DNA from: an uncultured Eubacterium sp.
GTDB lineage: Bacteria; Bacillota; Clostridia; Oscillospirales; Acutalibacteraceae
Reading direction: 5' to 3'
DNA: 64,000 bases
NCBI GenBank assembly: GCA_934561395.1
Contig: CAKTGF010000004.1
Span: 170,936 to 234,935, forward strand
Position 1 is the stretch's first letter; every line of letters starts with the position of its first letter. The notes under the pieces are model-generated. The model ran no database searches. It was not told where the DNA came from and saw only the letters and a program-made list of their open reading frames with translations. Of the stretch, positions 2,895-21,654 are shown in pieces. Position numbers and translations under genes: made by a program.

Positions 2895-3614
2895 TTACTT
2901 AATGCACAGCTTATTATCATTATGATACCAAACAAGAATATAACCCGATGGAATTTTTGCCCAAACATTGCCTGTTGATATTTTTTTAACCTTTGAAATG
3001 CTGACAACAGTGCCCTTTTTAAGGCAGGCCTCCGCAGACGCCTTAGTAGAGGTGGCGTGCTTTTTGCCGTCAGCGGTAAGCTGCGACACCTTTTTTCTTT
3101 TTGTAGCGGTGCCGTAGCCGTTATAAACATATCGCTTTTCCGTTAAAGTATATTTGCCGTCCTCAATTTTTGGGGCGTTAACAATATTGCCCTGCTCCAA
3201 GGGGCGCAAAACGCCTAAAAATGAAGAATAGCCGTGCTTTATTTTGGTCATAGGCTCATGCTTTGAGGAGGGGTAGTTTTGGTCATAGGAATAAAAATAC
3301 TTTTCGTTACCCTCTCCCGATGCAATACTGACATGGCCGAGGCCGCTTTTTGATGTGAAAACGCACACATCTCCCTTTTGTGGCACAAATTTGGCGGTGT
3401 TGCCAATCCACTTAAAATTGTGTGTCAAATAATCGGAGGTGTGGCGCTTGTTATAATATTCAATAGCGTTACCGATTGACTGGGGCGTAACCCCCAAAAC
3501 ATTTGCAACAAAGTGCTTTACCAAATCAACGCACTGAATACCATAGGCATTATCGTAATCAAGACCCTTGCCTATAAATTTTTTAACCCAATTGTCCATT
3601 GTCATGGGAATCAT
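2895..3614 (-). CDS. Phage-type endolysin: N-terminal CHAP peptidase/amidase domain plus C-terminal bacterial SH3 (SH3b) wall-binding domain
   Basis: CHAP catalytic Cys context 'GIQCVDLV' and His 'GLGHVSIASG'. The C-terminal 'VWAKIPSGYILVWY' motif is SH3b-like. The start overlaps the holin gene. Confidence 0.75.
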   Translation of the reverse strand: MIPMTMDNWVKKFIGKGLDYDNAYGIQCVDLVKHFVANVLGVTPQSIGNAIEYYNKRHTSDYLTHNFKWIGNTAKFVPQKGDVCVFTSKSGLGHVSIASGEGNEKYFYSYDQNYPSSKHEPMTKIKHGYSSFLGVLRPLEQGNIVNAPKIEDGKYTLTEKRYVYNGYGTATKRKKVSQLTADGKKHATSTKASAEACLKKGTVVSISKVKKISTGNVWAKIPSGYILVWYHNDNKLCIK

Positions 3615-4231: not shown

Positions 4232-4259
4232 TTGACATATCATTTTAGCAGTGTATAAT
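4232..4259 (+). promoter_or_regulatory. Sigma-A promoter for the arg operon (TTGACA-N16-TGTATAAT) with ARG-box-like operators just upstream
   Basis: TTGACA at 4232-4237 and TATAAT at 4254-4259, preceded by TG. Upstream there is a TTTGAATTTTATGCATAT / ATATTCATTACAATGTATA pair resembling ArgR/AhrC boxes (~4190-4230), and a GCACAATTTGTGC palindrome (~4147-4159). Confidence 0.5.
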
Positions 4260-4330
4260 ATATGTAATTAAATTTTAGTTGGTAAGTATTTGTGCATACT
4301 TATTCTAATATTACGGAGAAATGTATAAAA

Positions 4331-5272
4331 ATGACAAAAGTATTCATTGACGGCAGCCAAGGAACAACAGGCTTAAAGATTTTCAAACGCTTTGAGGGCA
4401 GAAACGATATTGAGCTTTTGCAAATTGCAGAGGACAAGCGCAAGGATGCCCAAGAGCGTGCAAAAATGATTAACGAGTCTGACATTACCTTTCTTTGCCT
4501 GCCCGACCAAGCAAGCATTGAGGCTGTGAGCCTTGTTAAAAACGAAACTGTAAAAATTATTGACACCTCAACCGCTCACAGAACAAACCCGGGTTGGGCC
4601 TACGGCTTCCCCGAGCTTGACAAAAGTTTTAGAGAAAAAATCAAAACATCAAACCGCATTGCGGTGCCCGGCTGTTATGCAAGCGGTTTTAACTCAATTG
4701 TTTATCCGCTGACAGCATCGGGCTTAATGGCAAGGGATTACCCCATAACCTGCTACGCCATGAGCGGCTACACAGGCGCAGGCAAAAAGGGCATTGCTCA
4801 ATATGAGGACGAAAGCCGTGACAGCGAGCTTGATTCTCCAAGGCAATACGCATTAACCCAGCAACACAAGCATTTGAAAGAAATGAAAGCAATTTCAGGG
4901 TTGGAGCGAACACCGATTTTCGCCCCACACATTTGCGATTATCCCTGCGGCATGGTGGTTTCAATACCAATCTTTACCGATATGCTGACCAAAAAGGTTA
5001 CCCCAAAGGAGCTGCGTGAAATGTTTGCCGCTCACTACGAGGGTGAGCAATTTGTAAAGGTCAGAGAGGTTGGCTATTCAACAGCCATGATAGGCGCCAA
5101 CAACTTTGCCCAAAGGGACGATATGGAAATTGAAATTAACGGAAACGAGGACAGAATAATTGTTACCTCACGGTTTGACAACCTGGGCAAGGGTGCAAGC
5201 GGTGCGGCAATACAGTGCCTTAACATTGCAATGGGCATTGACGAAGCAACAGGTCTTAACTTAGGAGAATAA
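4331..5272 (+). CDS. argC: N-acetyl-gamma-glutamyl-phosphate reductase
   Basis: N-terminal 'KVFIDGSQGTTGLKI' Rossmann motif and the catalytic 'PGCYASG' motif. It is the first gene of the argCJBDF order. The ATG at 4331 has GGAG upstream; the track ORF starts 39 nt earlier. Confidence 0.85.
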   Translation: MTKVFIDGSQGTTGLKIFKRFEGRNDIELLQIAEDKRKDAQERAKMINESDITFLCLPDQASIEAVSLVKNETVKIIDTSTAHRTNPGWAYGFPELDKSFREKIKTSNRIAVPGCYASGFNSIVYPLTASGLMARDYPITCYAMSGYTGAGKKGIAQYEDESRDSELDSPRQYALTQQHKHLKEMKAISGLERTPIFAPHICDYPCGMVVSIPIFTDMLTKKVTPKELREMFAAHYEGEQFVKVREVGYSTAMIGANNFAQRDDMEIEINGNEDRIIVTSRFDNLGKGASGAAIQCLNIAMGIDEATGLNLGE

Positions 5273-5274
5273 TT

Positions 5275-6528
5275 ATGGAAAACAAATTTGAACTGATACA
5301 GGGCGGAATTTGTGCCGCAAAGGGCTTTAAGGCAAACGGCACATACTGCGGAATTAAAAAGCTTGCCAACGACGACCCAAGCATAAAGCACAAAAACGAT
5401 ATTTGCCTTTATGTTTCTGATGTGGAGTGCAATGCGGCGGCTGTATATACTCAAAACAAGGTAAAGGGCGCACCCATCCTTGTTACAAAGGCTAACCTTG
5501 AAAAATCCGGCAACAAGGCGATTGCGGTTATTGCCAACAGCAAAAACGCCAACACCTGCAATGCAGACGGCGTTGAAAAAGCAAACAGAATGTGCCAGCT
5601 TGTTGCAAACGAGCTTAACATACCTCGGGAGCAGGTAATTGTTGCGTCAACCGGCGTAATAGGTCAAATATTACCTATCGAGCCTATTGAAAAGGCCGTA
5701 CCCATTCTTGCAAAGGGGCTTTGCTACAACAAAAACAACGAGGCTGCCACAGCTATTATGACAACTGACACTGTAAAAAAGGAATATGCCGTTGAATTTG
5801 AAATTAACGGCGTTAAGTGCAGGCTCGGCGGCATGGCAAAGGGCTCGGGAATGATTCACCCCAATATGGCAACAACCCTTAACTTTATTACCAGCGACTG
5901 TGCAATCAGTGCAGAACTGCTGCAAAAGGCACTGTCAGATATTGTTAAGGTTACATACAACTGCTTATCCGTTGACGGCGACACATCAACAAACGATATG
6001 GTTTGCATTATGGCAAACGGCCTTGCTTTTAACGATGAAATAACAGCAGAGGATGAAAATTACGAAATATTCAAATCGGCATTGTTTGAGGTTATGGCTA
6101 ACCTTACAAGAATGCTTGCAAAGGACGGCGAGGGTGCAACCAAGCTTTTGGAATGTATTACCGTGGGTGCAAAGGATAAGGACACTGCAATCACAGTTGC
6201 AAAGAGCGTTGTCTGCTCCACCCTTTTCAAGGCTGCAATGTTCGGCGAGGACGCCAACTGGGGCCGTGTGCTTTGTGCAATCGGCTATGCCGACGCTGAT
6301 TTTGACATTAACAAGGTTGATGTTGATTTAAAGAGCGACAAGGGCATTGTTTCGGTTTGCAGAAACGGCGCAGGCGTTGAATTCAGCGAAGAAAAAGCAG
6401 CAGAGGTGCTTTCTTCCGATGAAATTCAAATTCTTGTAAATCTTAATTCAGGCGAAAGCGACGCTATGGCCTGGGGCTGCGACCTTACATATGATTATGT
6501 AAAAATCAACGGCGATTACAGAACCTGA
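5275..6528 (+). CDS. argJ: Bifunctional ornithine acetyltransferase / N-acetylglutamate synthase
   Basis: 417 aa with the autoproteolytic 'MATTL' threonine motif ('NMATTLNF') of the ArgJ family. Confidence 0.9.
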   Translation: MENKFELIQGGICAAKGFKANGTYCGIKKLANDDPSIKHKNDICLYVSDVECNAAAVYTQNKVKGAPILVTKANLEKSGNKAIAVIANSKNANTCNADGVEKANRMCQLVANELNIPREQVIVASTGVIGQILPIEPIEKAVPILAKGLCYNKNNEAATAIMTTDTVKKEYAVEFEINGVKCRLGGMAKGSGMIHPNMATTLNFITSDCAISAELLQKALSDIVKVTYNCLSVDGDTSTNDMVCIMANGLAFNDEITAEDENYEIFKSALFEVMANLTRMLAKDGEGATKLLECITVGAKDKDTAITVAKSVVCSTLFKAAMFGEDANWGRVLCAIGYADADFDINKVDVDLKSDKGIVSVCRNGAGVEFSEEKAAEVLSSDEIQILVNLNSGESDAMAWGCDLTYDYVKINGDYRT

Positions 6529-6546: not shown

Positions 6547-7401
6547 ATGGACTTAGATAACAGAATGAAGGCGGAGGTTCTTGCAGAGGCTCTCCCCCAT
6601 ATTCAAAGATACAGAAAGAAAACCATTGTTGTTAAATACGGCGGCAACGCAATGATTAACGAGGAGCTTAAGGAAGCGGTTATGCACGACCTGGTTCTTT
6701 TAACAACCATAGGCATTAAGGTTGTGCTTGTTCACGGCGGCGGCCCTGCCATTAACAGAACCCTTGAGCAAATGGGCATTGAAAGCAAGTTTGTTGATGG
6801 GCTCCGTGTTACGGATAAGGAAACCGTTGATGTTGTTCAAATGGTGCTTGCAGGCAAGGTTAACAAGGATTTGGTTTGCAAAATCTGCAATTTGGGCGGC
6901 CACGCAATCGGCCTTTCGGGTATGGACGGCAATATGATTAAATGCAGCCCCCTTGACACAAGCCACGGCTATGTGGGCGAGATTATCGAAACTAATATGG
7001 AGGTTATTAACGAGGTTCTTGATAATAACTTTATCCCTGTTGTTTCAACAATCGGCTTTGACGAAAAAGGCAACTGCTACAACATTAACGCTGACACCGT
7101 AGCCGCAAGAATTGCAGGTGACCTTAAGGCGGAGGCTTTAATTTCAATGACAGATATTATCGGCCTTTTAAGGGATGTTAACGATGAAAGCTCAAAAATC
7201 CAAAAGGTATTTATAAGCGATATTCCGGCACTTGTAAGCGACGGAATCATTAAAGGCGGTATGATACCGAAAATTGATTCAATGACCCAGGCAATAAGAA
7301 ACGGCTGTAAAAAAGCATTTATTATTGACGGCAGAGTTCCCCACTCCATACTTATGGAAATGCTTACCGACGAGGGCTTGGGAACAATGTTCAGGGGCTA
7401 A
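6547..7401 (+). CDS. argB: Acetylglutamate kinase
   Basis: 284 aa with 'VVKYGGNAM' and 'VLVHGGGP' amino-acid-kinase motifs, in operon position between argJ and argD. Confidence 0.9.
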   Translation: MDLDNRMKAEVLAEALPHIQRYRKKTIVVKYGGNAMINEELKEAVMHDLVLLTTIGIKVVLVHGGGPAINRTLEQMGIESKFVDGLRVTDKETVDVVQMVLAGKVNKDLVCKICNLGGHAIGLSGMDGNMIKCSPLDTSHGYVGEIIETNMEVINEVLDNNFIPVVSTIGFDEKGNCYNINADTVAARIAGDLKAEALISMTDIIGLLRDVNDESSKIQKVFISDIPALVSDGIIKGGMIPKIDSMTQAIRNGCKKAFIIDGRVPHSILMEMLTDEGLGTMFRG

Positions 7402-7415
7402 GAAAGGTAAAATAC

Positions 7416-8579
7416 ATGAACACTAAGGAACTTGACAACAAATATGTTGCACATTCATACGGCAGGTTTGATGTTTGCCTGACTGAGGGCAGCGGCTCAA
7501 CACTTTATGACGAGGCAGGCAAAAAATACATTGATTTCGGTTCGGGAATCGGCGTAAACGCCTTTGGAATTTGCGACGACGAATGGAAAAACGCCGTTAC
7601 CGAGCAGCTTGACAAGGTGCAGCACACCTCAAACCTTTACTACACCGAGCCCTGTGCAAAATTGGCACAGCTGCTTTGCACAAAAACAGGGATGAAAAAA
7701 GTTTTCTTTTGCAATTCCGGTGCAGAGGCTAACGAGGGCGCAATAAAATTTGCAAGAAAATACAGCAACAACAAATACGGCGAGGAGAGGTCAACAATTA
7801 TTACCCTTGTTGACTCCTTCCACGGCAGAACAATAACCACGCTTGCCGCAACCGGTCAGGAGGTTTTTCACACCGATTTCGGCCCCTTCACCCCCGGCTT
7901 TAAATACTGCCCTGCCAACGATATTGAGGCATTAAGAAAAATGGTAACAGACGATGTTTGCGCCATTATGTTTGAGTGTATTCAAGGCGAGGGCGGCGTT
8001 AACAACCTTAACGAGGATTTTGTTGCGGAAATCAACACCCTTGCAAAGGAAAAGGACATTTTAATGGTTGTTGACGAGGTTCAAACAGGCAACGGCAGAA
8101 CAGGCAAATATTTTTCATACGAGCATTTCGGCATTAAGCCGGACATTGTTTCAACAGCCAAGGGTCTTGGCGGCGGCTTGCCCATCGGCGCTGTTTTATT
8201 CGGCGAAAAAACGGCAGACTGCGTTACACCGTCAAGCCACGGCTCAACCTTTGGTGGCAACCCCATTGTTGCCGCAGGTGCAATCAGCATTGTTGAAAGA
8301 ATTGACGATGACTTTTTAATTGCGGTAACCGAAAAAGGCAAATACATAAAGAACTTTGTTAAAAACATTAAGGGTGTTAAAAGCATTTCGGGCATGGGCT
8401 TGATGGTTGGCATTGAAACCCACAAAAACGCCGGCGACATTGCCAAGGAGTGCCTTGAAAAAGGGCTTTTGGTTTTAACCGCTCACAAAAACAAGGTAAG
8501 GCTGCTCCCCGCCCTTAACATAAGCTTTGGCGAATTAAACGAAGGATTAAATATTTTGAAAGAGGTAATTGAAAAATGA
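7416..8579 (+). CDS. argD: Acetylornithine aminotransferase (class III PLP aminotransferase)
   Basis: 387 aa with 'VVDEVQTGNGRTGK' and the PLP lysine context 'STAKGLGGG'. Confidence 0.9.
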   Translation: MNTKELDNKYVAHSYGRFDVCLTEGSGSTLYDEAGKKYIDFGSGIGVNAFGICDDEWKNAVTEQLDKVQHTSNLYYTEPCAKLAQLLCTKTGMKKVFFCNSGAEANEGAIKFARKYSNNKYGEERSTIITLVDSFHGRTITTLAATGQEVFHTDFGPFTPGFKYCPANDIEALRKMVTDDVCAIMFECIQGEGGVNNLNEDFVAEINTLAKEKDILMVVDEVQTGNGRTGKYFSYEHFGIKPDIVSTAKGLGGGLPIGAVLFGEKTADCVTPSSHGSTFGGNPIVAAGAISIVERIDDDFLIAVTEKGKYIKNFVKNIKGVKSISGMGLMVGIETHKNAGDIAKECLEKGLLVLTAHKNKVRLLPALNISFGELNEGLNILKEVIEK

Positions 8580-9478
8580 AGCACTTATTGAAATTACAGG
8601 ATTTGGACAAAAACGAAATTTTAGACATACTTAACCTCGCTGACCAGCTTAAGTATGAAAACCACAACGGCATTAAGCACCATCATCTTAAGGGCAAAAC
8701 CCTTGGCATGATTTTTCAAAAAAGTTCAACCCGCACAAGAGTAAGTTTTGAAACAGGTATGTATCAGCTTGGCGGTCAGGCATTATTTCTTTCAAATAGG
8801 GATTTGCAAATCGGCAGAGGCGAGCCCGTGCAGGACACTGCAAGGGTGCTGTCACGCTATCTTGACGGTATTATGATAAGAACCTTTGAGCAAAAAGAGG
8901 TTGAGGATTTGGCTGAATACGGCTCAATTCCAATTATCAACGGCCTTACCGATTACTGCCACCCCTGCCAGGTGCTTGCAGACCTTATGACAATAAGAGA
9001 ATACAAAAAAAGCTTTGACGGCTTAAAGTTCTGCTTTATCGGCGACGGCAACAACATGGCTAACAGTCTTATTGTAGGTGCAATTACCATGGGTATGGAA
9101 TGTGCAATCGCCTGCCCCGACGATTACAAGCCTGACAGCGAAATAATGAAATGGGCTGAAGAAAACGGCAAATTTACCTGCTCATCCGATATTTTGGCTT
9201 GTGCAAAGGGCGCAGATGTTATTTACACCGATGTTTGGGCATCAATGGGTCAAGAGGAAGAAAAGGCAGAGAGAGAAAAGATATTTAAAAACTACCAAAT
9301 CAACGATGAGGTTATGGCTGTTGCAAATGACAAGGCAATGGTTCTCCACTGCCTGCCTGCACACAGAGAGGAAGAAATAACCGCAAAGGTATTTGAGGAG
9401 CATGCAAACGAAATTTTTGACGAGGCTGAAAACAGGCTCCACGCTCAAAAGGCAGTTTTGGTTAAATTATTAGGATAA
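8576..9478 (+). CDS. argF: Ornithine carbamoyltransferase
   Basis: 'STRTRVSFE' carbamoyl-phosphate-binding motif and 'HCLPA' motif. The start overlaps the argD stop (ATGA). Confidence 0.9.
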   Translation: MKHLLKLQDLDKNEILDILNLADQLKYENHNGIKHHHLKGKTLGMIFQKSSTRTRVSFETGMYQLGGQALFLSNRDLQIGRGEPVQDTARVLSRYLDGIMIRTFEQKEVEDLAEYGSIPIINGLTDYCHPCQVLADLMTIREYKKSFDGLKFCFIGDGNNMANSLIVGAITMGMECAIACPDDYKPDSEIMKWAEENGKFTCSSDILACAKGADVIYTDVWASMGQEEEKAEREKIFKNYQINDEVMAVANDKAMVLHCLPAHREEEITAKVFEEHANEIFDEAENRLHAQKAVLVKLLG

Positions 9479-9494
9479 TAAATCGGTAATTGTT

Positions 9495-10574
9495 ATGACA
9501 GAAAATAAAGAAATTTACATTTGCCTTGAAAACGGTCAAACATTTAAGGGCTACAGCTTTGGTGCGGAAAGCGATGTAATAGGCGAGCTTGTTTTCACAA
9601 CGGGTATGGGCGGTTATATCGAAACCCTGACCGACCCCAGCTATTACGGACAGATTGTAATGCAAACCTTCCCCCTTATCGGCAACTACGGCATGATAAG
9701 CGAGGATATGGAAAGCAAAAAATCCTATGTAAGCGCCTATGTTGTAAGAGAAAAGTGCGATAACCCGTCAAATTTCAGATGTGAGGGCACACTTGAGAAC
9801 TTTTTAAAGGAAAACAATATAGTGGGCGTTTACGGCGTTGACACAAGGGAGATTACAAAAATTATCCGTGAAAGCGGCGTTATGAACGCACAAATCACAA
9901 CCAACCCAAATAAGGTTGATTATGAAAAAATAAAGGAATACAAGGTAACAAAGGCTGTTGAAAGCGTTTCAACCCACAAGCCCGAGCTTTCACCCAGCAA
10001 GGAACACAAATTTAATGTTGTGCTACTTGACTACGGCGCAAAAAAGAACATTATCAGAGAGCTTAACAAGCGTGGCTGCAATGTGGCGGTTATGCCATAC
10101 AACACCAAAGCCGAGGATATCTTAAAATTAGGCGTTGACGGCGTTATGCTTTCAAACGGCCCCGGCGACCCCGGCGAAAACACCGAGGCTGTGGAGGAGC
10201 TTAAAAAACTTATAGGCAAGGTGCCCATTTTCGGAATTTGCCTTGGCCATCAGCTTTTGGCACTGGCTATGGGCGGCGAAACCACAAAGCTTAAATACGG
10301 CCACAGAGGCGTTAACCAGCCTGTTAAAAACCTTGAAACAGGCAGAACCTACATTTCGTCCCAAAACCACGGCTATGCGGTGGTTAGCGAAAGCGTTGAA
10401 AAAAGTGGCGGCGTTATTATGTATGTTAACGCTAACGACAACACCTGCGAGGGTGTGGATTACCCTGACAAAATGGCATTTTCGGTACAATTTCATCCGG
10501 AGGCTTGCTCAGGCCCGCATGACACACAGTTTATTTTTGACAAATTTATTAAAATGATGGGAGGTAACAAATAA
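9495..10574 (+). CDS. carA: Carbamoyl-phosphate synthase small (glutaminase) subunit
   Basis: 359 aa with the class-I GATase 'GICLGHQ' catalytic Cys motif. The stop overlaps the carB start. Confidence 0.9.
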   Translation: MTENKEIYICLENGQTFKGYSFGAESDVIGELVFTTGMGGYIETLTDPSYYGQIVMQTFPLIGNYGMISEDMESKKSYVSAYVVREKCDNPSNFRCEGTLENFLKENNIVGVYGVDTREITKIIRESGVMNAQITTNPNKVDYEKIKEYKVTKAVESVSTHKPELSPSKEHKFNVVLLDYGAKKNIIRELNKRGCNVAVMPYNTKAEDILKLGVDGVMLSNGPGDPGENTEAVEELKKLIGKVPIFGICLGHQLLALAMGGETTKLKYGHRGVNQPVKNLETGRTYISSQNHGYAVVSESVEKSGGVIMYVNANDNTCEGVDYPDKMAFSVQFHPEACSGPHDTQFIFDKFIKMMGGNK

Positions 10575-13500
10575 TGCCTCTTGATAAAAGCATAAAAAAG
10601 GTACTTATGATTGGCTCAGGGCCGATAGTTATCGGTCAGGCTGCGGAATTTGACTACGCAGGCGCACAGGCCTGCCGTGTTTTAAGGGATGAGGGCATTG
10701 AGGTTGTGCTTATCAACTCTAACCCTGCAACAATTATGACTGACAATGCCCTGGCAGACCATATTTACCTTGAACCTTTAACGGAAGGAACCGTAAAGCG
10801 TATAATCGAAATTGAACGCCCGGACTCAATATTATGCGGCCTTGGGGGTCAAACAGGACTTACCATCGGCATGCAGCTTGCTAAAGACGGCTACCTTGAC
10901 CAAATGGGCGTTAGGCTCCTTGGCACAAACGCCGAGGCTATTGATAAAGCTGAGGACAGGCAAATGTTCCGTGACACAATGGTTAAGCTTAACCAGCCCG
11001 TTGTGCCCAGCGACATTGCAAACGACCTTGAAACTGCAAAAAAAATCGCCGACGAAATCGGCTACCCTGTTATTATTCGCCCGGCATTCACATTGGGCGG
11101 TGCTGGCGGCGGCGTTGCTTACAACAGGCAGGAGCTTGACATTATTGCCAAAAACGGCTTAATGCTCTCCCCTATCACACAAATTTTGGTAGAAAAATAT
11201 ATCGCAGGCTGGAAAGAAATTGAGTTTGAGGTTATGCGTGACCATATCGGCAATGTAATTGCCGTGTGCTCAATGGAAAACTTTGACCCTGTAGGAGTGC
11301 ACACCGGCGACAGCATTGTAATTGCTCCGGCTGTTACCCTTTCTGATAAGGAGTACCAAATGCTCCGCTCCGCTTCACTTGACATTATCACGGAGTTAGG
11401 CATTGAGGGCGGCTGCAACTGCCAATTTGCCCTTAACCCCGAAACCTTTGAATACAGCGTTATTGAGGTTAACCCCAGAGTTTCACGGTCGTCTGCGCTG
11501 GCGTCAAAGGCAACAGGCTACCCAATTGCAAAGGTAACAACAAAAATTGCCTTGGGCTACACCCTTGACGAAATTAAAAACGATGTAACAGGCAAAACCT
11601 GCGCTTGCTTTGAACCAACCCTTGACTATGTTGTTGTTAAGGTGCCCAAATGGCCCTTTGACAAATTTGTTCAGGCATCACGCAAGCTTGGCACACAAAT
11701 GAAGGCAACAGGCGAGGTTATGAGCATTGCCCCAACCTTTGAGGCTGCAATAATGAAAGCGGTCAGAGGTGCGGAAATCGGCCTTGACACATTAAACAAC
11801 AAGGCAATAAGCAGCGATAATTTAACAGAGCAACTCCACAGGCAGGACGATTTAAGGCTGTTCACTGTGTTTAAGGCTCTCCAAAACGGTATTTCCGTTG
11901 ATGAAATCCACAACATAACCATGATTGACGAGTGGTTTTTATACAAGCTTAAAAATCTTGTGGAATATGAAAAGGAAATTGCGGGAAATCCACTTTCAAA
12001 GGAGCAGTATTTAAGGGGTAAGAACTATGCCTACCCCGATAAGGCACTTGAAAGAATAAGCGGCTATCCCCTTGCCTTTCATCAAAACTGCGTTTATAAA
12101 ATGGTTGACACCTGCGGCGCGGAATTTGCCGCAGAAACACCATACTTTTATTCAACATACGATGAACACTGCGAATCAAGAGCCCTTGAAAAATCAGGCA
12201 AGGATAAAATTATTGTTCTCGGCTCGGGCCCTATAAGAATAGGTCAGGGCATTGAGTTTGACTACTCCTCGGTTCACTGCGTTTGGACATTAAAGGAGCT
12301 GGGCTACGAGGTTATACTTGTTAACAACAACCCCGAAACCGTATCAACCGACTTTGACACAGGCGACAGGCTTTATTTTGAGCCCCTGTGCGAAGAGGAT
12401 GTAATGAACATTATTAAGGCTGAAAACCCAATAGGCGTTGTAGTTGCGTTCGGCGGTCAAACCGCAATCAAGCTTACAAAATTTTTGGATGAAAACGGCA
12501 TTAAGATTTTGGGCACCTCTGCCGAATCAATTGACATTGCGGAGGACAGAGAGCGCTTTGACGAGTTGCTTGAAAGCTTTGGTATATGCAGACCCAAGGG
12601 CACATCGGTTATGACCCTTGACGAGGCGCTGAATGCCGCCAACACGCTTGAATACCCTGTTCTTCTTCGCCCAAGCTATGTAATCGGCGGTCAGAATATG
12701 ACCATTGCATACACAGACGATGATGTTAAGCAGTATATGTCAATAATTCTTGCGCAAGGCATTGAAAACCCTGTGCTGGTTGACAAATATATGATGGGAA
12801 CAGAACTTGAGGTTGACTGTATAAGCGACGGCAAGGATGTGCTTATTCCCGGAATAATGGAGCATATTGAGCGTGCCGGCGTTCACAGCGGCGACAGCAT
12901 AGCTGTATATCCGCCATACAATCTTAACGATATGATGCTGGAAAAAATATGCGATATTTCACAAAAGCTTGCACTTTCGCTGGGAACAAAGGGCCTTGTT
13001 AACATTCAATATTTAATTTACAGAAACGAGCTTTATGTTATTGAGGTTAACCCCAGAGCGTCACGCACAATACCTTATATCAGCAAGGTTACAGGCGTGC
13101 CTATGGTAGAGCTTGCCACAAAAATTATGGTTGGCTCATCTCTAACTGAATTGGGCTACGGCAAGGGACTGTATCACATTCCCCCGTATTTCGCCGTTAA
13201 GGTGCCTGTATTCAGCTTTGAAAAGCTTAACGATGTTAACTCACAGCTCGGCCCTGAAATGAAATCCACAGGCGAGGTGTTGGGCGTTGGCAAAAACCTT
13301 AAGGAGGCGCTTTTCAAGGGTCTTGTAAGCGCAGGCTTTAATGTTGATGTTAACAAAAACGGCCACGGCGTTCTTATTACCGTTACCAAGCAGGACAGAT
13401 ACGAAATAGTAAACCTTGCCAAAAAGCTTGACGATTTGGGTGCAAAGCTTTGGGCAACCCCTGAAACCGCAAAGGAAATTGCCCGCCTCGGCATTGATGT

Positions 13501-14602
13501 TAATGTTGTTAACAAACTGCAAGACGATAATTCAATTATGAATTTGGTTGAAAGCGGCAAGCTTGACTACATTGTTTACACCGGCAAAAGCGATAAAAAG
13601 TCAATTGCCGATTATATCAAGCTGCACAACCGTGCAAACCAGCTTGGCATTGCCACATTAACCTCACTTGACACAGCAAACGCTTTGGCAGACATAATTG
13701 CATCACGCTACAACCAAAGCAACACAGAGCTTGTGGATATTAACAATATGCGTAAAGAAAAAAGCATACTTAAGTTCTCTAAAATGGAGGGCACCGGGGA
13801 TGACTACATTTTCTTTAATAACCAATGCGGAATTATTACCTGCCCCGAAAGCTTCGCCATTGAATTTTGTGACAGGCATTATTCCATCGGCGGCGACGGC
13901 ATTGTGCTTATTGAAAACAGCACTGTTGCCGACGCTAAAATGAGAATATTCAACCTTGACGGCTCAGAGGGTAAAATGGCAGGAAACTCCATTCGCTCGG
14001 TGGGCAAGTTCCTTTACGATAACGATATTGTTAAAAAGGATAATATGACCATTGAAACAGCTGCAGGCATTAAGCAGCTTAAGCTCTTTACCCGTGAGGG
14101 CAAGGTATCGTCTGTAACGGTTGATATGGGCAAGGTTCAGTTTAAACCCGAGCTGATACCTGTAAGTATTAATAAGAATAAGATTATTAACGAGCCTATC
14201 AGCGTGCTTGATAAGGAATATAACATTACCTGCGTTTCGGTAGGTAACCCCCACTGCGTAGTTTTTGTTGACAATGTTGATAAGGTAGATATTGAAAATG
14301 TAGGCCCTAAGTTTGAAAGCCTTAACATTTTTCCTGAAAGAGTTAATACCGAGTTTGTAAGAGTGGTTAACCCCAACACAATTAAAATGCGTGTTTGGGA
14401 GCGTGGAAACGGCGAAACCCCTGCCTGCGGAACAGGCGCCTGCGCCGCTGTTGCCGCCGCTGTTGAAAACGGCTATTGCAATAAGGGCGAGGATATAATC
14501 GTTAAGCTCCGTGGCGGCGATTTAATCGTTAATTACAGCGACGAAAGAATTACCCTTTCCGGCAACACAAACCTTGTCTATAAAGGCGAAATTGAATATT
14601 AA
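10574..14602 (+). CDS. carB: Carbamoyl-phosphate synthase large subunit fused in frame to a C-terminal diaminopimelate epimerase (DapF) domain
   Basis: 1342 aa, versus ~1060-1075 aa for a typical CarB. Residues ~1-1064 contain the two ATP-grasp halves (including 'EVNPRVSRSSALASKATG'). Residues ~1065-1342 begin 'LKFSKMEGTGDDYIFF' (cf. E. coli DapF 'MQFSKMHGLGNDFMVV') and contain 'GNPHCV' and 'ETPACGTGACAA', the two catalytic-Cys motifs of DapF. There is no stop codon between the two parts. Confidence 0.8.
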   Translation: MPLDKSIKKVLMIGSGPIVIGQAAEFDYAGAQACRVLRDEGIEVVLINSNPATIMTDNALADHIYLEPLTEGTVKRIIEIERPDSILCGLGGQTGLTIGMQLAKDGYLDQMGVRLLGTNAEAIDKAEDRQMFRDTMVKLNQPVVPSDIANDLETAKKIADEIGYPVIIRPAFTLGGAGGGVAYNRQELDIIAKNGLMLSPITQILVEKYIAGWKEIEFEVMRDHIGNVIAVCSMENFDPVGVHTGDSIVIAPAVTLSDKEYQMLRSASLDIITELGIEGGCNCQFALNPETFEYSVIEVNPRVSRSSALASKATGYPIAKVTTKIALGYTLDEIKNDVTGKTCACFEPTLDYVVVKVPKWPFDKFVQASRKLGTQMKATGEVMSIAPTFEAAIMKAVRGAEIGLDTLNNKAISSDNLTEQLHRQDDLRLFTVFKALQNGISVDEIHNITMIDEWFLYKLKNLVEYEKEIAGNPLSKEQYLRGKNYAYPDKALERISGYPLAFHQNCVYKMVDTCGAEFAAETPYFYSTYDEHCESRALEKSGKDKIIVLGSGPIRIGQGIEFDYSSVHCVWTLKELGYEVILVNNNPETVSTDFDTGDRLYFEPLCEEDVMNIIKAENPIGVVVAFGGQTAIKLTKFLDENGIKILGTSAESIDIAEDRERFDELLESFGICRPKGTSVMTLDEALNAANTLEYPVLLRPSYVIGGQNMTIAYTDDDVKQYMSIILAQGIENPVLVDKYMMGTELEVDCISDGKDVLIPGIMEHIERAGVHSGDSIAVYPPYNLNDMMLEKICDISQKLALSLGTKGLVNIQYLIYRNELYVIEVNPRASRTIPYISKVTGVPMVELATKIMVGSSLTELGYGKGLYHIPPYFAVKVPVFSFEKLNDVNSQLGPEMKSTGEVLGVGKNLKEALFKGLVSAGFNVDVNKNGHGVLITVTKQDRYEIVNLAKKLDDLGAKLWATPETAKEIARLGIDVNVVNKLQDDNSIMNLVESGKLDYIVYTGKSDKKSIADYIKLHNRANQLGIATLTSLDTANALADIIASRYNQSNTELVDINNMRKEKSILKFSKMEGTGDDYIFFNNQCGIITCPESFAIEFCDRHYSIGGDGIVLIENSTVADAKMRIFNLDGSEGKMAGNSIRSVGKFLYDNDIVKKDNMTIETAAGIKQLKLFTREGKVSSVTVDMGKVQFKPELIPVSINKNKIINEPISVLDKEYNITCVSVGNPHCVVFVDNVDKVDIENVGPKFESLNIFPERVNTEFVRVVNPNTIKMRVWERGNGETPACGTGACAAVAAAVENGYCNKGEDIIVKLRGGDLIVNYSDERITLSGNTNLVYKGEIEY

Positions 14603-14603
14603 G

Positions 14604-14636
14604 AAAAAACGGTATTGCATTAAGCAATACCGTTTT
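14604..14636. terminator. Bidirectional rho-independent terminator
   Basis: A perfect CGGTATTGC/GCAATACCG stem with a 5-nt loop, flanked by an A-run 5' and a T-run 3'. It lies between the convergent carB-dapF and XRE genes. Confidence 0.85.
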
Positions 14637-14639
14637 AAT

Positions 14640-14888
14640 TTACAAATTAGTTTTATCAATTCTGTTTTCTATTTCTCTTACAATATCGCTCATTTTAACA
14701 TCAAGTGCATTGCTTAAGCGGTACAGTGTTTCCAATGTAGGCTTACGTTCCCCACGCTCAATGGCGGAAAGATGAGTTCTGCCAATATCGGCTAAACCAC
14801 TCAAAACCTCCTGCGAAACACCTTTTCTTTTTCTGAAATCACATATTACATCTCCTACTATTTTTGAATCAAGAACAGGAACAAACAT
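14640..14888 (-). CDS. XRE-family (Cro/C1-type) helix-turn-helix transcriptional regulator
   Basis: 82 aa with 'RKRKGVSQEVLSGLADIGRTHLSAIERGERKPTLETLYRLSNAL', which matches the HTH_3 pattern. Confidence 0.75.
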   Translation of the reverse strand: MFVPVLDSKIVGDVICDFRKRKGVSQEVLSGLADIGRTHLSAIERGERKPTLETLYRLSNALDVKMSDIVREIENRIDKTNL

Positions 14889-14997
14889 AAAATCACCTCA
14901 AATAGATTTTATGATATGTTCAACCGCATTATGACCACATATGTTGACAATTGCACACTTATGTGTTATATTTTTATAATAAGATGAGGTATTTAAA

Positions 14998-15639
14998 ATG
15001 AACGAAAACAATCAACAACCCCAATACCCACAAGGAGAAAATCAACAATTTCAACAAGGGCAGTATTATCAACAACCTGTGTATATGCCCCAGCAGCCTG
15101 TGAAAAAGAAAAAGCCGCTCCATAAAAAGTGGTGGTTTTGGCTAATAATAGTCATTGTAGCTATTGCAATTATATCATCATTGGGTTCACGTGATGACAC
15201 TGCAACAAACGACAATAGTTCCGGTGTTATCAACACATCAGCGGAAAACACAGAGGTTAGTGCATCTGATACAGAAACAACTGAAAATACAACAGAGTCT
15301 ACAACAAAGGAAACCACAACGGAAAAGAAAGTTCCTACCGAATATCATTCCGCCCTTACAAAAGCGCAAACATACAGCGATGTTATGTATATGTCAAAGC
15401 AAGGAATATATGACCAATTAACCTCTGAATACGGCGAAAAGTTTTCAGAGGAAGCTGCAAAATATGCGGTTGAGCATGTCAACGCTGATTGGAATTATAA
15501 TGCATTGCAAAAGGCAAAAACATATCAAGAAGAAATGGCAATGTCCCCTTCAGCAATACATGACCAGCTAACCTCAAGCTATGGAGAGAAATTCACAAAA
15601 AAGCAGGCAGACTATGCAATTGAGCATTTAAACGATTAA
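14998..15639 (+). CDS. Membrane-anchored protein with two Ltp-family (host cell surface-exposed lipoprotein, PF07553-like) repeats and a Gln/Pro-rich N-terminus
   Basis: Q/P-rich residues 1-35, a single TM 'WWFWLIIVIVAIAIISSL', and a Thr/Glu-rich linker. Two repeats of 'Q/TYxxxMAMS..IHDQLTS.YGEKF(S/T)..A.YA(V/I)EH' follow. Confidence 0.6.
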   Translation: MNENNQQPQYPQGENQQFQQGQYYQQPVYMPQQPVKKKKPLHKKWWFWLIIVIVAIAIISSLGSRDDTATNDNSSGVINTSAENTEVSASDTETTENTTESTTKETTTEKKVPTEYHSALTKAQTYSDVMYMSKQGIYDQLTSEYGEKFSEEAAKYAVEHVNADWNYNALQKAKTYQEEMAMSPSAIHDQLTSSYGEKFTKKQADYAIEHLND

Positions 15640-17840: not shown

Positions 17841-19898
17841 TTACTCCTTATTCTGCTTTTGTTTTTTTATTAATTGCTGAATTATATATTTACCTGCAAC
17901 CTCGCCGTTTTTGCCGAAATTGGAAATATATGTGTTGCGAATGTTAAGTATTTTATCGGCATAGCTGTCCTTTTGCTCCAAAAGGCTCTGCGCCGCATTA
18001 TATGCCTTGCCTGCCTCGTTAACCTCCAGGCTTATGCCAACCTCATTTCTAAGCTTAATTTCCAAAGGCTCAATGCCGATTTGCTTATATTCCTTGTTCA
18101 TAACCTTCATGGGCGTGTTAATAAACAAGCAGGGCTTTAGGGTTACATAGGAATATTCAAAGGCAATTGCCGACCAATCGGTAATCAGCAGGTCTGACTG
18201 ATAAATTGAGTCGCTTGATGTGAAATCAAGCTCAAATTTTAAATCGTCGCCCTTATAGTCAGAGTATTTTTTAACAATTGCGTCAAGCCTTTGCGAATAA
18301 CGCTTAACATATTCGGGATGTGGGCGAACAATAATGTTAAGCCCCTTTCCCAAAAGGGAGGATAAAAGCTCATCCAGGCAAAGGTCAAGAATATTATCCT
18401 CCTGCCAGGAGGGTGCAACAAGCACCCGGGGTGTGCCCCCCTCTCGCCTTGGCATTTGGTCATACTGCTGCTTTAAAATCTCCAAAAAGCCGTAGCCTGC
18501 CATAACAAGGTTCTTTGGCGGTAGATTATAAATCTCCTCCTGCCTGCGGATTTCGGGAATTTGGAACTCACCTATGCAGAAGATAGTATCATAGCTGTCA
18601 AGGCTGTGGTTATTAAGCAAAAGGTGCGTGCTCATAGGGCCGTGCATAGTATAAATATACTCAATATCCTTGCGGATATATGAACGTTTGTAATGGAAAT
18701 TTTCAATATCCGGCATTGTCATTAAAACAATGTCAGCATCCATTTTCATAAACAGGGTTATAAGCTTTTTTTCGCCGATAAAATAGGGCCTTATCTTTGA
18801 ATTTTCCTTGGCTAAATTAAAAATATTATCATTAGGGTCGCTTGTAACATAATGGATAATAATATTTGAATTATTCAGTAAGTAATCAATAATTGTGCTG
18901 AAATATTTGTAATAGCCGTTCCGCTCGGAATAAATAACAAGGTGCTTGTTTGCAACGGAAAAGAATTTTTTATAATCTGCCTTTTCACGCCTGTAAAGCT
19001 GGCTGCCTACCTCAATTTTATTTTTTTGGCCCACGGAATCAATTTTTTCAAGCTCTTTTTTACTTTCCTCAAGAGCCTTATAGTCAATATATTTTTTAGG
19101 GTTTATTATTGCATTTAAAACCAGCTGTTGAACCATTGTGAACAGGTTGCTGAAAATCCAGTAAAGGCCGATGCCTGCCGGCACAAAGCCGCCGAGAACA
19201 AGTGAAATGCCAACCGAAAGTGCATTTGTAGCCAGCTGCTGAGCCCTGCCCTGCTCCGCCTGCAAGGGGTTCATTTTGTTTTGAAACAAGCACAGTGCCA
19301 AAGCGCAGCCCCCTGCTAAAACCGGAACCAAAAGCATTATTCCCCCTGCCGCAATAGGTGTGGAGGATAAATCAAAGCCCAAAAAGTTCATATCAAGGGC
19401 TTTTATTGCCGACAAATCGGTGCCGTCAACCGTAAATCCCTCCTGTATCGCTTTTACAACCGCAAGCTGAATTGAATTTGAGCTGCTGTCAAGTCCCATG
19501 CCGGCACAAACGGAATTAATAAGCGCCGAAGCGGTATTTTTATCCATAGCAAGCACATTGCTCAAGGGATTATAAATAATTTGAACAACGCACATTAACA
19601 GCACAAGCTGAATAACCATGGGCAGCATGCCTGCCAATGGGCGATATTTTTCTCTTTTATAAAGGCTTAACTGCTCCTCTGAAATTTTATCTTTTTCGCC
19701 GTAGTATTTGGCTTTAATCACATTAAGCTCGGGCTGGAGCTTAACAAGTTTTACAGAATTTTTATGGGTCCATAAGGAAACAGGAAGCATAACAACCTTT
19801 GTCAGCAGGGTAAATAAAATTATTGCCAGCCCGTAGTTTGACAGCAGGTTGTAGCAAAGCCGCATTATGTAACCGAAAGGATACGCTAAATACTCCAT
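17841..19898 (-). CDS. Fusion protein: N-terminal YidC/Oxa1-family membrane insertase domain plus C-terminal CDP-glycerol glycerophosphotransferase (TagB/TagF-like) domain
   Basis: Residues ~1-280 contain 'LQPELNVIKAKYYGEKDKISEEQLSLYKREKYRPLAGMLPMVIQLVLLM', matching the YidC/SpoIIIJ conserved region (LQPEM..KY....Q.E...LYK..G.NPLAGCLP..IQ). Residues ~300-685 contain 'YIYTMHGP', 'LVAPSW' and 'IVRPHP', the Glyphos_transf-type blocks of TagF-like enzymes. Confidence 0.65.
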   Translation of the reverse strand: MEYLAYPFGYIMRLCYNLLSNYGLAIILFTLLTKVVMLPVSLWTHKNSVKLVKLQPELNVIKAKYYGEKDKISEEQLSLYKREKYRPLAGMLPMVIQLVLLMCVVQIIYNPLSNVLAMDKNTASALINSVCAGMGLDSSSNSIQLAVVKAIQEGFTVDGTDLSAIKALDMNFLGFDLSSTPIAAGGIMLLVPVLAGGCALALCLFQNKMNPLQAEQGRAQQLATNALSVGISLVLGGFVPAGIGLYWIFSNLFTMVQQLVLNAIINPKKYIDYKALEESKKELEKIDSVGQKNKIEVGSQLYRREKADYKKFFSVANKHLVIYSERNGYYKYFSTIIDYLLNNSNIIIHYVTSDPNDNIFNLAKENSKIRPYFIGEKKLITLFMKMDADIVLMTMPDIENFHYKRSYIRKDIEYIYTMHGPMSTHLLLNNHSLDSYDTIFCIGEFQIPEIRRQEEIYNLPPKNLVMAGYGFLEILKQQYDQMPRREGGTPRVLVAPSWQEDNILDLCLDELLSSLLGKGLNIIVRPHPEYVKRYSQRLDAIVKKYSDYKGDDLKFELDFTSSDSIYQSDLLITDWSAIAFEYSYVTLKPCLFINTPMKVMNKEYKQIGIEPLEIKLRNEVGISLEVNEAGKAYNAAQSLLEQKDSYADKILNIRNTYISNFGKNGEVAGKYIIQQLIKKQKQNKE

Positions 19899-19908
19899 AA
19901 CTCCCCCA

Positions 19909-21654
19909 TCAATACCACTGATAATCAGATTTTATACGCTCGGCTATTTTCCAATTTGAAATATCCGTGGCGTCGCCCTCAATTGAATATTTGTTAAAGC
20001 AAAGCTTGTGCTCTGCCGGGCTGTAAACAGATTGATAAAAAGTTCTGCAGACATTTTCATTTTCGCCTATGTCAAAAACTCCCCTGCCGTAGCTGTTTTC
20101 GGTCTTTAAGCCTGCATCCTTAACAATTGTGGGGATTATATCGGCGGCGGAAACCTGGGCGTGTGAAACCGAAGAGCCCTCGGTATCTGTATTTCTCGGC
20201 TTAACCATAATGCAGGTTTTAACGCCGCTTTCAACCTGAGCGTCCAAATCCTCGGTTTCGGTGTATGGAATACCGTGGTCACCTGCAATTATAATTGTTG
20301 AATTGTCATAAACGCCCAGTTCTTTAAGCTGGTTTAAATATTCGTAAACCAATTTAAAACTGCCCTTTGTTTGGGATAATGAGGTTGCGTTTTCTGTTCT
20401 CTCGCAGTTTTCGTCAAGAACAAAGGGTGTGTGGCAGCCGTGAAGATACAAAAATGTGTAATTTTTATCGCTGCCTGAATCGCTTAAATTGTTTTCAGTG
20501 ATTAAATCGTAAAGTTTGGCGTCGTCATTAGCGTAAATGCCGTTTTCGCAGTTAAGCTTTGACAGATTGTTAGTTCTGCCGGTGTTTGCGTTTTCATACA
20601 TCTGACTTGTTAAGGTCATTGAAAATGAGCGTGCAAAGGAAAGTTCAGTTAAATATTTGAATATATCGGTTTTATTTGGGGTGTAGCCCTCAACCTTTTC
20701 AACATTATCGGCAATTCCGTTAAAGCTTGACGCATCGGAATAAACATAATATCTGTCGGCATAAACGCTTACGCTGTAGCCGTTATTTTTTAAATCCTTT
20801 AAAAACGGCGAGGTTTGGTATGCCTCGTCAAAATACTCGGTGGGCGAGCATTGCAGGCTGTATTCAACGCCGGAAATCATATAGGGCACACCGGGAAATG
20901 TGCGGGTATACATTGATGTGGCGTTGTCAAAAATCGTAAAGCCGTCAAGATCGTCAAAAAAGCTTGGGTCATCCTTAATAACATTTTCGTAATAAGTGGT
21001 ATCAAATCTGTCAAACAATATGTAAATGATATTTTCCTTTTCCGACGCCTTGGTAATATCCTTTTGCGACAGCACATATTCGGTATTTATTCCCTTATCG
21101 GAAAACAGGTTGTATTTGGTAAAATCGGTAACAAGGCTTGCACCGTTCATTACTATGAGCAAAACGCTTAAGTAAATAACAACCTTTTTCCAAACATTCA
21201 TCAGCAGCCCTGAAACAAGAACTATTGCCAGAATAATTATAACATAAATTATAAATGACAGAACAAGGTCGCCGTAGCTTGCGTTTTTAGCGTCGCCCGA
21301 AACAACGGTAACAGCCTTAACGCACAGGTTATCAAAATAGCTGGCAACTATAATTGAAAAAGCAAGAGCTGAAAGCATATTCAGCAAATATCTGTTAAAC
21401 AGCATTAAAAAGCCAAACAGCAGTGCAAAGCCTATAACAAAGCTTAACACCACCAAGCCGATTATATCGCTGAAAGAAAAGGCAAACTCACGCATATTAT
21501 TTGCGTAAATATCAATAGGACCGAAAAGTAAAAATACAAAGGACATTGTAAGTGAGGTCAAAGCCGCAATTATTGCCTTTTCCTTTGTTGAATATTTACT
21601 GAATTTTGGTTTTGAGGAATTTTCTTTGTCTTTCTCTGCTTTACCGAATTTCAT
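19909..21654 (-). CDS. LtaS-like polyglycerolphosphate transferase / sulfatase-family membrane protein
   Basis: A 5-TM N-terminal region followed by an extracytoplasmic alkaline-phosphatase-like domain ('LYLHGCHTPF', 'IIIAGDHGIP'). Confidence 0.6.
   Translation of the reverse strand: MKFGKAEKDKENSSKPKFSKYSTKEKAIIAALTSLTMSFVFLLFGPIDIYANNMREFAFSFSDIIGLVVLSFVIGFALLFGFLMLFNRYLLNMLSALAFSIIVASYFDNLCVKAVTVVSGDAKNASYGDLVLSFIIYVIIILAIVLVSGLLMNVWKKVVIYLSVLLIVMNGASLVTDFTKYNLFSDKGINTEYVLSQKDITKASEKENIIYILFDRFDTTYYENVIKDDPSFFDDLDGFTIFDNATSMYTRTFPGVPYMISGVEYSLQCSPTEYFDEAYQTSPFLKDLKNNGYSVSVYADRYYVYSDASSFNGIADNVEKVEGYTPNKTDIFKYLTELSFARSFSMTLTSQMYENANTGRTNNLSKLNCENGIYANDDAKLYDLITENNLSDSGSDKNYTFLYLHGCHTPFVLDENCERTENATSLSQTKGSFKLVYEYLNQLKELGVYDNSTIIIAGDHGIPYTETEDLDAQVESGVKTCIMVKPRNTDTEGSSVSHAQVSAADIIPTIVKDAGLKTENSYGRGVFDIGENENVCRTFYQSVYSPAEHKLCFNKYSIEGDATDISNWKIAERIKSDYQWY

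Follow-up and report, generated by a model that had tools for sequence, protein, structure and literature searches.

The DapF enzyme, diaminopimelate (DAP) epimerase, uses two cysteines, Cys73 and Cys217, and in its canonical chemistry each face of the alpha-carbon must be met by a thiol. As epimerases, single C73A/S mutants have essentially no activity, and single-Cys mutants of Haemophilus influenzae DapF still carry out stereospecific HF elimination from 3-fluoro-DAP. Some members of the DapF fold superfamily manage with a single catalytic residue, such as PhzF and the Cys/Thr-type trans-3-hydroxy-L-proline dehydratases, and in Cys/Thr-type enzymes of the proline-racemase family the loss of one catalytic cysteine goes with a changed function. 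Carbamoyl-phosphate synthase (CPSase) is a textbook allosteric enzyme, with UMP, IMP and ornithine as its known effectors. In Escherichia coli, the C73A/C217A double mutant of DapF has no epimerase activity (PMC6061791), and a non-catalytic regulatory role of DapF, as an activator of RppH, has been documented (PMC4227774, PMC6061791).

Here, we describe a gene that joins these two proteins. It lies in a window of 64,000 nucleotides (the whole stretch of DNA that was analysed, from an uncultured Eubacterium sp.), where the last gene of an arginine operon encodes one polypeptide made up of a complete and presumably active CPSase large subunit (CarB, partner of CarA), followed by a DapF-derived domain. 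We propose, at a probability of roughly 50%, that this domain is an epimerase-dead, DAP-binding module at the allosteric end of CPSase, where we infer both the ligand and the effect on CPSase. The architecture itself already sits unremarked in public databases, where the fusions are named either “carbamoyl-phosphate synthase large subunit” or “diaminopimelate epimerase, partial”. What appears to be new is the systematic, recurrent loss of catalytic cysteines with the ligand pocket kept, and the implied non-catalytic, possibly regulatory, DapF-derived domain on CPSase. A search of the literature returned no paper on a CarB-DapF fusion or on a natural Cys73-less DapF, although the library searched is no proof of absence; a 2026 GapMind preprint mentions DapF2 and not the CarB-DapF fusion (10.1101/2024.10.14.618325).

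A DapF-like domain with one catalytic cysteine

The fusion gene and its parts are as follows.

10574 to 14602, plus strand: CarB::DapF-like fusion, 1342 amino acids in one open reading frame (ORF list and translation)
10574 to 13711, plus strand: complete CPSase large subunit, residues 1-1046 matched by models
13403 to 13663, plus strand: MGS-like allosteric domain of CarB, residues 944-1030 (Pfam), with the DapF-like module attached behind it
13712 to 13771, plus strand: CarB C-terminal tail and junction, residues 1047-1066, NQSNTELVDINNMRKEKSIL, holding Met1059 (13748-13750) and the A6 run
13758 to 13763, plus strand: A6 homopolymer, not conserved in orthologues (longest A run 2-6)
13772 to 14599, plus strand: DapF-like domain, residues 1067-1342, with the full two-lobed DapF fold
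13979 to 13981, plus strand: Ala1136 (GCA) at the catalytic Cys73 position, from alignment to solved DapFs
14426 to 14428, plus strand: Cys1285 (TGC), the retained second catalytic cysteine (Cys217)

Pfam finds, in order, CPSase_L_D1 (twice), CPSase_L_D2 (twice), CPSase_L_D3, MGS and then DAP_epimerase, the CarB part consisting of two preATP-grasp/ATP-grasp halves, an oligomerisation domain and the C-terminal MGS-like allosteric domain. Residues 1-1046 score 1442 bits against NF003671 (cutoff 599) and 1403 bits against TIGR01369 (cutoff 1027) in NCBIfam. As expected of a CarB equivalog, the models are matched over their full length, the domain order is canonical and carA adjoins. The NCBIfam DapF model TIGR00652 scores 266-271 bits on residues 1067-1341 (cutoff 114.65), PF01678 scores 186 bits and DapF structures in the Protein Data Bank (PDB) are matched at E = 1e-64; at most about a dozen residues separate the CarB and DapF family models, CarB itself running to about residue 1054. 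ORF, NCBIfam and Pfam thus agree with the first-pass annotation, which had described the last gene of the arg/car operon as 1342 residues running from CarB into a complete DapF domain.

The same annotation had credited the domain with both catalytic cysteines, and here the alignment disagrees. Residues are numbered as in H. influenzae DapF, the reference having been checked residue for residue against PDB 1bwz. The three motifs that it named, “FSKMEGTGDDYIFF”, “GNPHCV” (residues 1224-1229) and “ACGTGACAA”, are all present in the fusion protein, but “GNPHCV” is the Asn157/His159 pocket motif and not a catalytic-cysteine motif. The CGNG motif that holds Cys73 in DapF aligns instead to “AGNS”, within “KMAGNSIRS”, so that of the two cysteines only Cys217 (Cys1285) is there and Cys73 is Ala1136. 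This is not a base-calling slip, because the GCA codon is at least two substitutions from any Cys codon. Two further changes in the window protein are Asn11 to Asp1076 and the second Cys of CGNGxRC (position 79) to Ser.

Across 121 fusion sequences, namely the window protein with the 120 fusion homologues that match it best, position 73 is Ala in 113, Gly in 6, Ser in 1 and a gap in 1, and is Cys in none; Ala73 was likewise found in all 82 orthologues rebuilt from genome loci. The Cys217 position is Cys in 119 of the 121. For stand-alone DapFs, an exhaustive HMMER search with the domain alone was run against 1.84 billion cluster representatives, and its best 150 matches gave 108 full-length stand-alone proteins, with Cys73 in 106 and Cys217 in 106. 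Position 73 is the only column that is at least 80% conserved both in these and in the window's clade while differing in residue. The sole free-standing candidate for an Ala73 DapF (P0124, 289 residues) starts with “MDINALR”, inside the CarB tail, and was rejected as a truncated call of a fusion gene.

Because a thiol is needed on each face of the alpha-carbon, the DapF-like domain is predicted to be unable to run the two-base LL-DAP/meso-DAP epimerisation, and it is probably not a canonical epimerase. We infer that epimerisation is not under selection in the fusion.

The pocket has had a different history from the thiols. N64, G74, N75, N157, H159, N190, E208, R209, C217, G218 and T219 are each conserved in 117-121 of the 121 sequences, and an aromatic residue (Y/F) is kept at dimer-interface position 268. 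The window protein itself has all of the DAP-binding residues as well as H159, with the exception of N11, which is Asp. Judged as a DapF, then, the domain has the sequence and fold match, Cys217 and the pocket, and lacks Cys73. An essential catalytic residue has been lost while fold and pocket are kept under purifying selection, which is what characterises a pseudo-enzyme. Because one catalytic cysteine is lost and the pocket is kept, the domain is more likely to be a ligand-binding add-on than a second enzyme. A ligand-binding regulatory or scaffold role is, in our judgement, an even call, and that the ligand is DAP is a more tentative suggestion.

One alternative dispenses with the ligand altogether: the domain could be a purely structural or oligomerisation module, in which a DapF dimer stabilises the CPSase dimer or tetramer. 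The aromatic residue kept at position 268, the short conserved junction and the repeated loss of catalytic residues all fit such a module, and DapF dimerisation is essential and well documented (PMC6061791). We nonetheless consider it quite unlikely, since it leaves unexplained the near-invariance of eleven buried ligand-contact residues, even in family members without either cysteine.

The junction and the operon

The first-pass annotation left open whether CarB and DapF are a single protein or two genes merged by a single-base error at the homopolymer in the junction. Its observations on the DNA itself stand: at the junction, ...NTELVDINNMRKEKSILKFSKMEGTGDDY..., the two parts are not divided by a stop codon, a Shine-Dalgarno-like sequence or a spacer, and the A6 run is present at 13758-13763. 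The merger does not stand. The exact 1342-residue protein is encoded on at least 10 contigs, four of which come from four separate metagenome assemblies (ERZ27287164, ERZ28614726, ERZ4566954, which is a Hadza gut sample, and ERZ27287073).

The same arrangement is found in related genomes, the comparison that the first-pass annotation had proposed. A homologue search with the last 402 residues (MGS plus DapF-like) found DAP_epimerase in all 120 best matches, down to 56% identity, nearly all of them with MGS on the same polypeptide and a few shorter calls with DAP_epimerase only. As the homologue searches gave only gene calls of at most 704 residues, full-length status was taken from genome loci. 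When each GTDB species was scanned through one genome, 179 relatives came up, of which the best 80 were fetched. In all of these 80 the alignment runs uninterrupted over the junction, at 74-90% identity. All 80 are metagenome-assembled genomes labelled Eubacterium sp., Oscillospiraceae, Ruminococcaceae or Clostridia, and they include Eubacterium sp. CAG:251 and Firmicutes bacterium CAG:341. When ORFs were rebuilt from the DNA, 60 of the 62 complete newly fetched loci gave proteins of 1334-1391 residues; the two shorter ORFs (loci L011 and L070) are broken upstream, inside carB, and not at the junction, and locus L005 is split likewise.

The junction peptide is near-invariant in these relatives (“NTELVDINxMRxEKGILKFSKM”) over DNA that differs, with an approximate dN/dS of 0.10. 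Over 82 orthologous junctions, the longest A run is 2-5 nucleotides in 77 and the reading frame is kept. Single-base changes in the run were also simulated. With A5, the frame reads on to residue 1122. With A7, CarB would stop at residue 1066 and the DapF part would be left with a single in-frame ATG, codon 1071, a start that would truncate its first strand. From the identical ORF in separate assemblies, the conserved junction and the variable A run, it follows that the fusion is real, and we regard this as virtually certain. An artefact, in which adjacent genes were merged by a one-base assembly or sequencing error, has the A6 run at the junction in its favour and nothing else; it conflicts with the identical ORF in independent assemblies, with a fusion kept in 80 species-level genomes that differ in their junction nucleotides and with a junction peptide under selection, and can be given next to no credence.

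It might still be argued that one ORF yields separate CarB and DapF-like proteins, either through a -1 slip on the A6 run, which would give a 1066-residue CarB, or from an internal start at Met1059, and indeed the A7-equivalent frame ends at residue 1066 and Met1059 is conserved in the window's clade. The A run lengths just described speak against the first route, as does the A6 run not being in the canonical X XXY YYZ register. As for the second, there is no Shine-Dalgarno sequence ahead of the ATG at 13748, the Met is Leu in some distant fusions, and by eye the Met of the conserved “INxMR” aligns with one in the E. coli CarB C-terminal tail and is likely to be a CarB residue. Two products are thus very improbable, and slippage or an indel at A6 is ruled out by the A5/A7 simulation, the separate assemblies and the A run lengths: the run is neither a slippage site nor an error site.

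Breaks were seen elsewhere in the gene. In several relatives carB is frameshifted upstream of the junction (L005, 5307-9350; L011; L070), for example into 878 and 449 residues in GCA_054290425.1, and on a long-read-style contig carA and carB are in many pieces (L086, 6057-11254). In all of the relatives with a split carB (L005, L011, L070 and L086) the MGS-DapF-like part is still fused. Another relative has, about 2.7 kb downstream of the fusion gene, a 27-residue stretch that is 85% identical to part of the DapF-like domain and may be a small duplicated fragment (L010, 13893-13973). In L005, a more distant relative, genes for a 449-residue Mur-ligase-family protein and an Amidase_3 protein (MurNAc-L-Ala amidase) lie just downstream of the fusion (9805-11154), a cell-wall gene context that may or may not be meaningful.

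The other features of the operon in the window are listed below. The Pfam families of the arg and carA genes were taken from the called genes of four loci (L001-L004) at which translation of the fusion gene gives the window protein.

4232 to 4259, plus strand: candidate operon promoter, TTGACA-16-TATAAT, a 12/12 sigma-70 consensus match only, 33 nucleotides before the argC start
4292 to 5272, plus strand: argC (ORF; Semialdhyde_dh)
5275 to 6528, plus strand: argJ (ORF; ArgJ)
6547 to 7401, plus strand: argB (ORF; AA_kinase)
7416 to 8579, plus strand: argD (ORF; Aminotran_3)
8576 to 9478, plus strand: argF (ORF; OTCace)
9495 to 10574, plus strand: carA (ORF; CPSase_sm_chain and GATase)
14606 to 14636, no strand assigned: 13-bp hairpin between A and T runs, resembling a bidirectional terminator at the operon end, 4 nucleotides past the stop codon

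The genes argC-argJ-argB-argD-argF-carA-carB are tightly packed or overlapping, with the fusion gene last. The carB ATG overlaps the carA stop as TAATG, and GGGAGG lies 9-10 nucleotides upstream of the carB start. An Rfam scan of the window found only two tRNAs, and no riboswitch or leader at the arg operon.

On either side of the operon are genes of other kinds. Straight after the terminator is a divergent pair (14640-15639), made up of a minus-strand gene for an 82-residue HTH_3 (Cro/C1-type) protein and a plus-strand gene for a 213-residue protein with two Ltp “host cell surface-exposed lipoprotein” repeats, the latter preceded by an 11/12 promoter match (14944-14972); the pair resembles a prophage-derived repressor and superinfection-exclusion module. 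Further on, a minus-strand ORF of 685 residues (17841-19898) joins a YidC/60KD_IMP insertase (residues 22-262) to a CDP-glycerol glycerophosphotransferase (residues 482-593). This gene is present in locus L001 too, and in the window it adjoins a sulfatase/LtaS-like gene (19909-21654). Upstream of the operon are an ordinary ECF-type cobalt transporter, cbiM(+PDGLE)-cbiQ-cbiO (412-2838, plus strand), and an ordinary CHAP-domain protein (2895-3614, minus strand).

A wider CarB-DapF family

Among the cluster representatives found was also P0126, a CarB-DapF fusion of full length (1349 residues) that has both cysteines and is deposited as MGI6497870.1, [quoted passage not shown]. When its C-terminus served as the query of a second homologue search, at least 120 more MGS and DapF fusions came up, whose named sources include Oscillospiraceae, Clostridia, Treponema/Spirochaetes, Chitinivibrionia and Syntrophomonadaceae (Syntrophomonas). 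In this second set (n = 120), position 73 is Cys in 83, Ser in 17, Gly in 14, Ala in 4, Phe in 1 and Asn in 1, and position 217 is Cys in 104, Ser in 11, Ala in 4 and Thr in 1.

A neighbour-joining (NJ) tree was built from the DapF columns of 235 fused domains, 13 stand-alone representatives and H. influenzae DapF. All 235 fused domains form one clade, within which the window's Ala73 group is monophyletic, and the fusion is apparently of single origin. By Fitch parsimony on this tree, a rough estimate, position 73 has undergone at least 10 Cys/non-Cys changes and position 217 at least 5. Both cysteines are missing from 15 fusion proteins, all of which keep the listed pocket residues, one of them differing at aromatic position 13. 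Judging from these sequences, hundreds of anaerobic Bacillota, together with some Spirochaetota and members of other lineages, have the fusion as a fixed trait, and the tree indicates that the fused family has kept the DAP pocket and the dimer-interface aromatic residue but lost catalytic thiols many times. Such repeated, independent loss of catalytic cysteines with the pocket kept would make the family a clean natural case of the passage from enzyme to pseudo-enzyme.

The gene context of the fusion varies. In the window's clade it is the arg operon; in L086 a purine operon comes after carA-carB::dapF, and in L088 the fusion is beside pyrG. That a dapF in an arginine operon is unusual, as had been remarked of the window, is therefore true of the window's clade and does not extend to the distant fusions, which are beside purine genes or pyrG. 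The fusion in L088 (10001-11989) was called at 662 residues, comprising the C-terminal half of CarB, MGS and a Ser/Ser DapF-like domain, with unrelated genes upstream and pyrG downstream; its CarB may be split or N-terminally truncated. A single cluster representative (P0121, 512 residues) has an OTCase N-terminal domain joined to CarB MGS and a Gly73 DapF-like domain. We rejected it as a second type of fusion, since a deletion or mis-assembly of the argF 3' end, carA and most of carB is the better explanation for this one sequence.

The Cys/Cys members raise the question of bifunctionality. The ancestral CarB-DapF fusion may have been bifunctional, and a genuine CPSase/DAP epimerase was one of the two readings offered by the first-pass annotation for the window protein, of which the fusion has held up and the second activity has become doubtful. 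To be an epimerase, the window protein would need an unconventional second base, such as a water that sits in the Ala cavity and is activated by Asp1076, the replacement of Asn11. Its score against the TIGR00652 equivalog is far above the cutoff, its pocket is intact, the N11D change is seen only in the Ala73 clade, and Cys/Cys fusions do exist. However, Cys73 is missing from all 121 of the close fusions, the Asp11 that would activate the water is present in just 71 of the 121 members of the window's clade, 15 family members lack both thiols, and the loss of activity in the Cys mutants of DapF, single and double, points the same way. We consider this reading distinctly unlikely.

The main rival to our proposal is a neofunctionalised one-base enzyme, in which Cys1285, with His and Glu helpers, takes the alpha-proton of a D-configured DAP-like substrate and the outcome is elimination, dehydration or isomerisation in place of epimerisation. 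The distribution of the cysteines suits it: Cys217 is retained in 119 of the 121 members of the Ala73 clade, where H159 and E208 are invariant, and over the family Ala/Gly73 lineages nearly always keep Cys217 (A/C 109, G/C 18) while Ser73 lineages have mostly lost it. The HF elimination by single-Cys mutants of H. influenzae DapF shows the kind of chemistry that could remain, and the one-base enzymes PhzF and 3-Hyp dehydratase are listed by a fold search among the structural neighbours of the domain. The domain does not group with PhzF itself, as PF02567 scores 20.2 bits, under its cutoff of 27, and identity to PhzF structures is 13-15%. Moreover, there is no candidate substrate, the pocket is the same as in DAP-specific DapF, and the fusions without both cysteines are equally conserved, which argues that thiol chemistry is not needed across the family. 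We thus hold a one-base enzyme to be rather unlikely.

A proposed epimerase-dead module on CPSase, compared with known systems

If the domain is epimerase-dead, what might it do for CPSase? By the Nei-Gojobori method on 150 pairs from 62 full-length orthologues, dN/dS is approximately 0.085 in the DapF-like part, 0.056 in MGS and 0.050 in the rest of CarB, which indicates a domain under purifying selection and not one in decay. In an AF2 model of the last 402 residues (mean pLDDT 89), the structure nearest to the DapF part is that of a DapF from a cyanobacterium with ligand bound, 9mro, at a TM-score of 0.92 (target-normalised) and an rmsd of 2.1 Å. The property under selection in the DapF-like domain would then be the binding of DAP, or of a very DAP-like amino acid, beside the allosteric and oligomerisation surface of CPSase, where the domain could serve either for allosteric sensing or as a dimerisation clamp that depends on the ligand. 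In this way the output of carbamoyl phosphate would be tuned to the state of the aspartate-derived branch that leads to DAP, lysine and the cell wall. The most specific form of the proposal is a dedicated sensor, in which LL-DAP or meso-DAP is bound without turnover and the signal passes through the allosteric domain to switch the activity or the oligomeric state of CPSase; such a sensor would have evolved from a CarB-DapF enzyme that was at first bifunctional and whose catalytic thiols were lost repeatedly. We put it forward as possible and no better than doubtful.

Real DAP epimerase activity would have to be supplied from elsewhere in the genome. Record names and samples of stand-alone DapFs did not link a canonical dapF to any fusion-carrying genome. 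A tblastn search of the window and all fetched loci for a second dapF or carB found none, which is uninformative given the small share of each genome that they cover.

Several points weigh against an epimerase-dead DAP-binding module. In the window's clade Cys217 (119 of 121), His159 and Glu208 are invariant, which may be more than binding alone requires and fits residual one-base chemistry as well. The pTM of the AF2 model is 0.67 and the pLDDT of its linker is 63-72, so that the model demonstrates no fixed interface with the allosteric domain. The dN/dS values above are approximate, dS being saturated (about 1.8-2). No separate dapF, dapF2 or ddh was found in the 64-kb window or in about 1.3 Mb of fetched loci, an uninformative result either way. 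Finally, the physiological logic that would connect DAP to CPSase is our own rationalisation and is speculation: both of the pathways that consume carbamoyl phosphate also use aspartate, DAP is an aspartate-derived cell-wall precursor, and DAP is attached to UDP-MurNAc-peptide, a pyrimidine-nucleotide-linked intermediate.

If the proposal is correct, the fusion would represent a new regulatory link between the supply of cell-wall and lysine precursors and the synthesis of arginine and pyrimidines, in hundreds of gut and environmental anaerobes. An effector-type domain derived from a cell-wall and lysine enzyme would also be a new input to CPSase, in a large group of gut Clostridia most of which are uncultured. 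In addition, pathway-reconstruction tools could count the DapF step as present in genomes whose sole match is an epimerase-dead domain, and so mis-predict lysine or DAP prototrophy.

Compared with known systems, the CarB part of the fusion has the same full-length domain order as CarB (E. coli, PDB 1jdb/1bxr/1ce8; NF003671, TIGR01369), with carA immediately upstream. It differs from CarB in having about 280 extra C-terminal residues and in lying in an arginine operon and not in a pyrimidine context. On alignment to E. coli CarB, with residue numbers that we take to be correct and that are indicative only, the phosphate binders of the UMP/IMP site are presumably kept (K954 to R, T974, T977, K993), as is part of what we take to be the ornithine site (E783, D791, T1042), while by the same assumed numbering the fusion differs at N1015 to Y, T1017 to G, E892 to V and Y1040 to T.

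The DapF-like domain is 40-41% identical to 2otn and 9mro among the DapFs (EC 5.1.1.7; H. influenzae 1bwz/2gke, Bacillus anthracis 2otn, cyanobacterial 9mro) and has the same two-lobed fold. It shares with them the DAP-contact residues (Asn11, now Asp, excepted), Cys217 and the dimer-interface aromatic, and is set apart by Cys73 to Ala, Asn11 to Asp, Cys79 to Ser, its fusion to CarB and the absence of dap or lys neighbours. A stand-alone gut DapF with both cysteines (P0391), unlike the fusion, lies in a dapF-aminotransferase pair. The Cys/Cys CarB-DapF fusions such as P0126 have the same architecture and junction peptide and belong to the same NJ clade. They retain both catalytic cysteines, could be truly bifunctional and are found in the context of pur genes or pyrG.

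Two other systems resemble the fusion in one respect each. The Cys/Thr-type trans-3-hydroxy-L-proline dehydratase of the proline-racemase family (PDB 6r76, 4k7g) belongs to the same fold superfamily as the DapF-like domain, but at 12-15% identity, with another substrate pocket and with Thr, not Ala, as the replacement. In the aminotransferase (DapL-like)-DapF fusions (P0213 and P0249, 687 residues), DapF is likewise the C-terminal domain of a larger enzyme. There, however, the partner carries out the preceding step of the DAP pathway and neither cysteine has been lost, so that the two activities form a coherent metabolic pair in one enzyme.

For the regulatory role that we propose, a likeness is found in the E. 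coli DapF-RppH complex (PDB 6d13, 6vck), in which the DapF fold regulates another enzyme by binding to it: RppH is stimulated through direct contact with DapF, which has itself no hydrolase activity on the RNA substrate (PMC6061791). The differences are that E. coli DapF is an active, free-standing epimerase, that its association is non-covalent and that its partner is an RNA pyrophosphohydrolase, whereas the partner of the DapF-like domain is the CPSase to which it is fused.

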